Shown here: piece by piece, positions 6,841 to 7,856 of the stretch
Layout: the number at the start of each line of letters is the position of its first letter
Numbering within the stretch: the first letter of the stretch is position 1
From: Planctomycetia bacterium
GTDB lineage: Bacteria > Planctomycetota > Planctomycetia > Pirellulales > UBA1268
NCBI GenBank assembly: GCA_009923125.1
Contig: RFUD01000001.1
Coordinates: forward strand, 1 to 31,861
Reading direction: 5' to 3'
DNA length: 31,861 nucleotides
Made by a program: the position numbers and the translations under genes
Notes under the pieces: model-generated
Seen by the model: only the letters and a program-made list of their open reading frames with translations
The model's database searches: none
Told to the model about the DNA's origin: nothing

Positions 6841-7045
6841 GGGCACAAGCGTACACCGTACAGCGCCCACCTGCCAAGGGAATCCGCAGACAGCTAGTGC
6901 CCTTGGACAAGACATATTGCCTGGCATCTGCCGTCGCTTGGTGCGGACTCCTGCGGCGTGGTGCGAAGTTCCGCGTGCGTCGTATTCTGCGTCGCGCTCT
7001 GCTAGAGCCTTACTTATTCCGGCAGAAAACCGCGAGTGTTGCCAG

Positions 7046-7100
7046 TCCTACTCGGGGAGCTTCCTTCGCAGGGAGCAGCACCGGCTGGCATCAAGCCGCA
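7046..7100 (+). repeat. att-like repeat copy 2
   Basis: First 28 nt identical to 6131-6158; 55-nt match with 5 mismatches; 915 bp from copy 1. Confidence 0.92.
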
Positions 7101-7172
7101 GGGCGTTGCCGGGCAGTCTTGCGACATCCCGGCAGGGCGACTGACACCTTTTCCTGCCAACTCAACCGAAAA

Positions 7173-7439
7173 TCATTCGTGAACCGGCGGCAACTGAAAC
7201 CGTCCGGCGACCACGCCCTCGACCGAGATGTCTTCGTCAAGGGATTCCCAACGCAACGCCGTGCCGCCGACCTCGAGTCGCACTTCGGCCAACTCCGCTT
7301 CACTCGCTTCCTTGAGCCGGCGGAATCGATGTGCCGGGAATCCCACGACCCGCTGGTCCGTCAACTCGACGTAGACCATCCGGCCCTCAGTCCACGTTCT
7401 CGTCGCCACGGCTTCGGTTTCCTGGTGGATGGTGCTCAT
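7173..7439 (-). CDS. DUF2442 family protein (putative antitoxin)
   Basis: 88 aa; [12 protein letters not shown]...[12 protein letters not shown]...[17 protein letters not shown]. Confidence 0.88.
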
Positions 7440-7656
7440 GATATTTCTCCAACAACAGGTCGATGTGTTCGTAAACCAGCCGTTCCATTTCCCTCACCGC
7501 ATGTGCCGGAACGGAACGATTTCGGGCCAAGGCGACGGGATCCAGCCAGAACTTGCACTCGCCATCCGCACAACGGACGTGAATGTGAGGAGGTTCGATG
7601 CCCTCGTCCGAGTAAAAGTGAAAACGAAAACCACCGACTCGTAGCACCGTGGGCAT
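7387..7656 (-). CDS. DUF4160 family protein (putative toxin partner of DUF2442)
   Basis: [28 protein letters not shown]...[13 protein letters not shown]; start placed at ATG 7656; overlaps the DUF2442 start. Confidence 0.88.
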
Positions 7657-7838
7657 TCGTTCAGCGTATTGCCGGCGAGATACACAGGCAAGGCGGGCGG
7701 TTCCGACCGGGTGGCGTACTCGACCCGCCATCGAAACTTGCCCTATGCCACGCCCCGCCACCAACATCGTACGCCAACTTTTACGCCATCGCTTGGAAGA
7801 ATCTCGCATAACTCCCGACAAAACCACGATCCGGAACC

Positions 7839-7856
7839 ATCCTACTCGGGGAGCTT
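7839..7856 (+). repeat. att-like repeat copy 3
   Basis: ATCCTACTCGGGGAGCTT is identical to 6130-6147 (18 nt); 794 bp from copy 2. Confidence 0.88.

Follow-up and report, generated by a model that had tools for sequence, protein, structure and literature searches.

Introduction

Integrons hold arrays of short, recombinase-free cassettes, each with a site of its own, and toxin-antitoxin cassettes are common in the chromosomal superintegrons. The attP site of phage lambda carries the arm-type sites P1, P2 and P'1 to P'3, which are bound by the N-terminal domain of Int. The tandem islands at the ssrA gene of Dehalococcoides reportedly each have their own recombinase. In this study we describe a row of small cassettes behind the tRNA-Asn(GTT) gene of a freshwater planctomycete of the Pirellulales, located on a stretch of 31,861 nt (contig RFUD01000001.1 of assembly GCA_009923125.1; hereafter the window, meaning this whole stretch). 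Two of these cassettes end in a fixed arrangement of short motifs followed by a copy of the tRNA 3' end, the core, and an earlier note on this DNA had proposed that the arrangement is a maintained recombination site. From comparison with related loci, we regard it as probably the P arm (now in attR) of the att site of an integrative element that targets tRNA genes in the Planctomycetota.

Elements without integration genes have been described in streptococci, where cis-mobilizable elements (CIMEs), found with accretions of integrative and conjugative or integrative and mobilizable elements, keep attL and attR, have lost the integration genes and, it is proposed, move together with an element that arrives (PMC5704250). 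In Prochlorococcus, the searched part of the report on tycheposons describes cargo elements at tRNA genes, in tandem, with partial tRNA copies between them and degenerate remnants; that text defines tycheposons by their own tyrosine recombinase and replication genes and contains no description of arm-site architecture (10.1101/2020.12.28.424599). The Dehalococcoides tandem islands are, in the part of the report consulted, bounded by direct repeats of the 3' end of ssrA, the transfer-messenger RNA (tmRNA) gene (PMC3146451). Tandem elements at tRNA genes are already known, and we claim no new principle; a description of the system reported here was not found in the literature searched.

Results

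A site with fixed spacing precedes the extra core copies

The core, TCCTACTCGGGGAGC, is the 3' end of the tRNA-Asn(GTT) gene at 6073-6145. The whole assembly (2.9 Mb, 83% complete) contains exactly three copies, all of them in the window, and 15 to 28 nt of the tRNA 3' end are repeated at 6131, 7046 and 7840, such that the elements are bounded by direct repeats. Direct reading of the sequence places TGCGTCG at 6976 and 6988, AAAACCGCGA at 7026 and TCCTACTC at 7046, and, before the following copy, TACGCCA at 7770 and 7782, AAAACCACGA at 7820 and TCCTACTC at 7840. All six motif positions in the earlier note are right, and the offsets, counted from the first base of each core copy (7046 and 7840), are identical before both cores at -70, -58 and -20. 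The two heptamers differ by transitions only (TRCGYCR).

In 31.8 kb, 22 positions (in 12 places) begin an exact 7-mer that is repeated 12 bp on; at this rate, 7e-4 per position, the chance of a same-offset pair before both extra cores is about 5e-7. Across the 130 bases upstream of the core, the two arms are 41% identical without gaps, and the matches cluster in the motifs. A weight matrix that spans -110 to -1, omits the core and derives from 38 arms found in other genomes scored 72.9 bits at the core at 7046 and 25.2 bits at the core at 7840, the top two values among about 63,000 positions on both strands; with the same matrix the next-best window position reached -5.7 bits and the maximum in 20 shuffles was 2.3 bits. 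The site also extends beyond the motifs of the earlier note, having TGCG at -104, -94 and -84 (window 6942, 6952 and 6962), and the cores are followed by CGCA at +7, +27 and +37 and by TGCA at +17, in 10-bp phase (window 6152, 6162, 6172 and 6182).

The same arms occur across the family

A scan of the family for the core only, followed by reading upstream, retrieved 20 arrays: two to five in-line core copies on one contig, 0.8 to 9 kb apart, are present in 20 of 61 family genomes. Nearly all core copies outside the tRNA gene are preceded by the same layout, in register. A pair of hexamers or heptamers starts at -67 to -70 in 32 of the 36 cassettes behind tRNA-Asn, drawn from 18 related loci, and its sequence falls into five classes (TGCGTCG, TACGTCG/A, TGAGTCG/A, TGCGGCG and TACGCCA). 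The suggestion that spacing was kept while sequence diverged is thus borne out at homologous junctions. Forty arms align ungapped, with the information content in the motifs and the intervening positions free. In an AT-richer, divergent genus (L063 and L064; genomes G421 and G162) the same layout is spelled differently, the right arms having ACGACCAC/ACGACAAC repeats from -69 onwards and, near -30, a CAAAAACAATGAC block.

The decamer AAAACCRCGA that the earlier note placed at -20 is present in both window arms, but the exact 10-mer is not kept elsewhere in the family, where a looser block, aTTCcCg.aGAAAAc.gCgaTTgt, is conserved instead. A search of 401 genomes of the order for the exact string AAAACCRCGA-N10-TCCTAC returned nothing related, only chance matches. 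One Pirellulales genome (G360; L006, L010, L012-L014 and L016-L018) contains about ten copies of an unrelated repeat of at least about 60 bp, resembling a miniature inverted-repeat transposable element, which includes GTAACCGTTCACGGAA..AAAACCACGAAT..CGCGAATCCTACGAAT and fits the -20 pattern of the earlier note by chance only.

Among the family arms, TGCG peaks at -104, -94, -84, -70 and -58 and is absent from all left arms; there, CGCA peaks at +7, +17 and +37, and GCA at +8, +18, +28 and +38. The two ends therefore bear inverted, helically phased motif arrays. The resemblance of a short-cassette array to an integron could be taken to mean that the arm acts as an attC-like folded single strand or as a structured RNA. 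This we consider extremely improbable, given that RNAalifold on 16 arms found no conserved pairing beyond 4 bp in the core and no covariation, that an Rfam scan of the window returned nothing but the tRNA and that the repeats are direct and phased.

In the small cassettes the cargo is PIN together with Phd or a different antitoxin, HEPN plus a nucleotidyltransferase, a HigB/HigA-like pair, or DUF4160 plus DUF2442; the larger ones encode sulfatases, DUF1559 proteins, epimerases, AcrB, alginate lyase, a choloylglycine-type hydrolase and DUF1254/DUF1214 proteins. The earlier note had named toxin-antitoxin promoters or operators as the alternative, and both operons of the window do lie on the minus strand and start 113 to 134 bp from the heptamers. 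However, the distance to the start codon differs (134 versus 113 bp) whereas the distance to the core is identical, and the repeats are direct, not palindromic. In L065 c2 and L062 c1, plus-strand Phd-PIN operons run towards the same arm and have it on their 3' side; the arm also ends cassettes for sulfatase, the efflux pump AcrB and alginate lyase, and recurs in integrase elements at other tRNAs; gene direction varies between cassettes, and the arm is present either way. Because the arms are independent of cargo type and gene direction, they are not toxin-antitoxin operators, and we give that alternative next to no credence.

Complete elements with an integrase end in the same way

An integrase gene lies immediately after tRNA-Asn in two family genomes, one of which has TGCGGCG three times in that arm. 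The complete 7.8-kb tRNA-Asn element L165 carries an integrase and has, at its far end, TGCGCCG-N5-TGCGCCT at -69/-57 and GAAAACCTCGA at -20, followed by the core; the end signature that the earlier note had proposed looking for at integrase-bearing tRNA-Asn islands is thus present, in the layout -69/-57/-20. All nine complete elements, at six kinds of tRNA, have a heptamer pair near -68, and each of the nine carries its heptamer again in the other arm, where two copies at 12-bp spacing stand at +101 to +145, next to the int 3' end. The heptamer sequence differs from one complete element to another. That heptamers are specific to the element and matched between its arms we regard as the strongest argument that an element-encoded protein reads them. 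Left-arm and right-arm classes likewise agree in four of the five array cassettes that retain left-arm heptamers. The idea that differing heptamers correspond to different recombinases fits this covariation within elements, although the cassettes themselves encode no recombinase.

The stop-to-stop int frames of L093, L095 and L087 cross the left-arm heptamers into the tRNA gene, on the opposite strand, so that arm sites overlap or abut the int 3' end. Elements at other tRNAs have a similar TTTCCC..TTTCGCAG block. We also asked whether the TTCCCCG block imitates the tRNA's 5' acceptor strand, and rejected this because elements at tRNA-Glu, Lys, Met and Val have a similar TTTCCC block.

The integrases belong to a family with Phage_int_SAM_5 and Phage_integrase domains that is remote from known ones (best PDB sequence match, E 0.002; no NCBIfam model at cut-off). 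More than 580 relatives, most of them in the Planctomycetota, came up when one genome per species was scanned, and among the best 80 of these, 69 directly follow a tRNA gene, six of them tRNA-Asn. In five genomes examined for PF00589, most genes that are not Xer-like directly follow tRNA genes (Met, Val, Glu, Lys, Arg and Ser) and point at them, with tandem heptamers between the tRNA and the end of the integrase gene (TGCGTCGC three times at one tRNA-Met). A role for Xer recombinases at a dif-like site was rejected, as nothing resembles dif and a dedicated integrase family is present. In the window's own genome (G000), the short contig C120 (L078/L082) carries an Xer-like tyrosine recombinase split over two frames (133 and 279 codons), which may be a frameshift or an assembly error.

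A model of the integrase N-domain (43 sequences) predicts a three-stranded sheet and a helix (pLDDT, a predicted model-confidence score, 86). Its match to the arm-binding domain of the HPI integrase is weak and falls within the method's noise (Z 4.1, rmsd 1.5 A across 48 residues); residues 14-73 of lambda Int (structure 1z1b) gave Z 3.8, AP2 domains were also among the weak matches, and Foldseek against the PDB found no match for the N-domain. The two distinct motif sets leave room for a different division of labor, in which the sites are recombination arms but an accessory protein recognizes the heptamers (a host bending protein, or else an excisionase or directionality factor) and the arm domain of the integrase sits on the phased TGCG/CGCA motifs. 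It is the latter that are inverted about the core, like lambda arm sites, and the heptamers keep the same orientation in both arms; in addition, the left arm of element L028 has CCGCAG three times and no clear heptamers. Yet the element-specific heptamers, matched between arms in nine of nine elements, point to a reader encoded by the element, and the integrase is the only common protein identified in the elements, excisionase genes not having been searched for. We therefore consider an accessory reader of the heptamers unlikely.

The cassettes carry no recombinase

Searches with 26 family integrases (phmmer) and Pfam tallies found no tyrosine recombinase in the window or in the 20 arrays, and none of 36 cassettes contains an integrase fragment. 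Nor did the array contigs of five genomes yield PF00589 matches, all of which lay on other contigs, and no IntI adjoins the arrays. With arms and cores kept and no conjugation genes seen, the two integrase-free cassettes of the window are CIME-like mini-elements.

Cassettes have spread between genera

Cassettes are 87-95% identical across genera, whereas the genes that precede tRNA-Asn are 74-76% identical, also when genomes of the window's own genus are compared. Judged from sequence identity, this contrast (87-95% against flanks of about 75%) shows that the cassettes have spread, by whichever route. One Phd-PIN cassette ranks first, second or third in its row, depending on the genome.

The organism is present in freshwater, lake and drinking-water metagenomes from 12 studies. 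An independent lake sample includes a contig that bridges core 3 with the same arrangement, and a 3.9-kb contig of a wastewater metagenome (run X13) aligns exactly to 6130-7857 at 98% before continuing into unrelated sequence; the limits of this match are the first base of core 1 and the last base of core 3. No joint that skips a cassette was found over 4500-10500 in the contigs of four public runs, which, being contigs, do not address rare excision. An apparent lack of cassettes in runs with low word shares was rejected in favor of patchy cover.

Whole short cassettes also form, at about 95% identity, the last part of longer units (L051 c2 in L052 c3; L049 c2 versus L056 c3). Long units that end in a complete short cassette imply that internal cores can be lost and neighbors fused. 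Such loss over time, as implied by the small unit L051 c2 inside the large unit L052 c3, would also suit a locus of dead relics, in which the arms were left by integrase elements that decayed in place, the layout reflects common descent only and no recombination now takes place in this genome. The assembly yielded no cognate integrase, the third module of the window has no arm, erosion has affected the fourth core copy and the left arms are without their distal heptamers, all of which agree with decay. But the 36 cassettes hold no fragment of an integrase; moreover, the motifs are conserved and the positions between them variable, and the same cassettes stand at different ranks and in different genera with identity far above that of the flanks. 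On balance, we think it rather unlikely that these arms are relics.

Organization of the window

The features of the locus are collected in Table 1; the open reading frames (ORFs) of the small cassettes were picked by eye and then checked with Pfam.

Table 1. Features of the tRNA-Asn locus in the window
Feature	Position	Strand	Description	Source or score
tRNA-Asn(GTT)	6073..6145	+	last 15 nt (6131-6145) are core copy 1, attB-type	ARAGORN; Rfam tRNA, 73.6 bits
Left (P'-proximal) arm, cassette 1	6146..6187	+	module of about 42 bp, common to many cassettes	
Cassette 1 cargo	6218..6842	-	PIN_3 toxin (6218-6643) and small antitoxin-like ORF (6640-6842)	Pfam
Right (P) arm, cassette 1	6936..7045	+	TGCG at 6942/6952/6962; TGCGTCG at 6976/6988; ATTCCGG..AAAACCGCGA at 7016-7035	72.9 bits
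Core copy 2	7046..7073	+	15-nt core and 13 nt identical to the post-tRNA sequence	
Left (P'-proximal) arm, cassette 2	7061..7102	+	same class as 6146-6187	
Cassette 2 cargo	7173..7656	-	DUF2442 (7173-7439) and DUF4160 (7387-7656), putative toxin-antitoxin pair	Pfam
Right (P) arm, cassette 2	7730..7839	+	TACGCCA at 7770/7782; AAAACCACGA at 7820	25.2 bits
Core copy 3	7840..7857	+	18 nt identical to the tRNA end	
Third module, without end arm	7858..11722	-	HEPN/HTH ORF (7873-8370), nucleotidyltransferase (8390-8632), two DUF1254/DUF1214 genes	Pfam
Eroded fourth core copy and left-arm-like stretch	11723..11769	+		

Contigs of other samples align up to 6185-6187 and diverge beyond, at the end of the first left arm, and contigs from two other samples stop aligning exactly at 7857. 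The cargo of cassette 1 is 83% identical over 858 bp to L057 c1, from another genus, and that of cassette 2 matches part of L066 c2 at 87% identity across 507 bp. The right arm of cassette 2 has the distal motifs TGCC/CGCC in place of TGCG, and its heptamer class, TACGCCA, also occurs in L067 c1.

For the third module the weight matrix detected no arm. Its first 280 bp (7858-8140) are 83% identical to L059 c2, a 904-bp HigB/HigA-type cassette of another genus, and then diverge. The ORF at 7873-8370 looks like a HEPN part fused to an antitoxin-like HTH end of the L059 c2 type.

A sigma-70 promoter scan found no sites. Upstream of the tRNA, a perfect 12-bp tandem, TAGGCGGGAGTG twice, occupies 5484-5507 at the 3' end of a STAS-like anti-anti-sigma ORF (5130-5486) and extends into the spacer before a HATPase_c_2 kinase gene (5566-6027).

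Discussion

The unit that emerges begins with a left arm of about 42 bp, in which four CGCA motifs follow one another in 10-bp phase. Next come the cargo, a right arm of about 105 bp and the core, the right arm comprising TGCG three times at -104/-94/-84, heptamers at -70/-58 and a TTCCC..GAAAAC.GCG block from about -30 to -10. We propose that strand exchange would occur at the terminal copy of the tRNA 3' end and that the heptamers are arm-type sites for the N-terminal domain of a heterobivalent tyrosine integrase, whose fixed distance from the core would let one integrase bridge arm and core, as in lambda. The TGCG/CGCA arrays may be bound more weakly by the same domain or by an accessory factor, and the block near -20 may be a core-proximal binding or bending site.

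Cassettes would move when an integrase-bearing element of the matching heptamer class lands at the tRNA, either by pairing of the incoming element's attL with a downstream attR (mobilization in cis) or with the integrase supplied in trans. Pick-up in cis would account for the retention of the right arm in all cassettes and for the loss of most distal left heptamers. The earlier note's view of these as maintained recombination sites gains support, at the level of sequence, from the spacing at the junctions and from the integrase-bearing elements.

Several observations weigh against this reading. The five array-bearing genomes that were checked have integrases only at other tRNAs, and the window's assembly holds no homolog of the tRNA-Asn integrase, only Xer-like genes; since that assembly is 83% complete, absence of an integrase from the genome is not established. 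The small cassettes do not have the distal left-arm heptamers of complete elements (in the window cassettes heptamers are confined to the right arm) and may for that reason be unable to integrate alone. One of the five array cassettes with heptamers in both arms has unlike classes in the two. The fold match of the modeled N-domain, falling in the noise range of the method, is suggestive only. Anatomy, conservation, covariation and horizontal spread are seen in the sequences, whereas we infer which protein binds and that the sites still work.

In its widest form, the proposal is that lambda-type parts at tRNA-Asn make up an integron-like cassette platform: integrase-free cassettes, each with a complete right arm, would be collected behind the tRNA gene, transient elements with an integrase would carry them from genus to genus among genome-streamlined freshwater Pirellulales, and the heptamer class would serve as a compatibility code for which integrase takes which cassette. 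We put this forward tentatively, as a possibility that we doubt more than we favor.

These findings give a site-level account of how small-genome freshwater planctomycetes assemble and exchange accessory genes, among them toxin-antitoxin pairs, sulfatases, polysaccharide enzymes and efflux pumps, and they define a large, uncharacterized family of tRNA-targeting tyrosine integrases. Because the heptamers covary between element ends, sequence suffices to recognize the family's arm sites, and integrases paired with their att sites are thereby at hand for experiments. Whether integrase-less cassettes persist by keeping only the arm needed for pick-up by a passing element also becomes testable.

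Comparison with known systems

Like lambda attP, the sites described here combine a core shared with the target and flanking arms that carry short direct repeats at fixed distance, with two to three repeats in the int-side arm and, in related elements, an integrase that has catalytic and core-binding domains and a predicted extra N-terminal one. They differ from lambda in that the repeats are 7 bp long at 12-bp spacing, that phased TGCG motifs form a further set, that the integrases resemble characterized families only remotely and that the window units have no int. As with CIMEs, the units stand one behind another at a tRNA 3' end and have no integration genes. Unlike CIMEs, they contain no conjugation genes or remnants, measure 0.8-1.2 kb, often hold a single toxin-antitoxin pair, and stand up to five in a row, recurring across genera as a regular feature and not as an occasional decay product.

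The tandem islands of Dehalococcoides are likewise set between direct repeats of the 3' end of a small-RNA gene, but their anchor, in the part of the report consulted, is the tmRNA gene ssrA and not a tRNA gene. Tandem stacking at tRNA genes in streamlined aquatic bacteria is shared with the tycheposons, in contrast to which the cassettes are far smaller and none has a recombinase; replication genes were absent from the Pfam families listed for the cassettes, in which no search was aimed at them. With integrons the locus shares rows of one- to few-gene cassettes that lack a recombinase and each end in their own recombination site. Here, however, there is no attC hairpin and no adjacent IntI, genes run in both directions and a tRNA gene is the anchor. 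The array thus resembles an integron, yet its sites look lambda-type.
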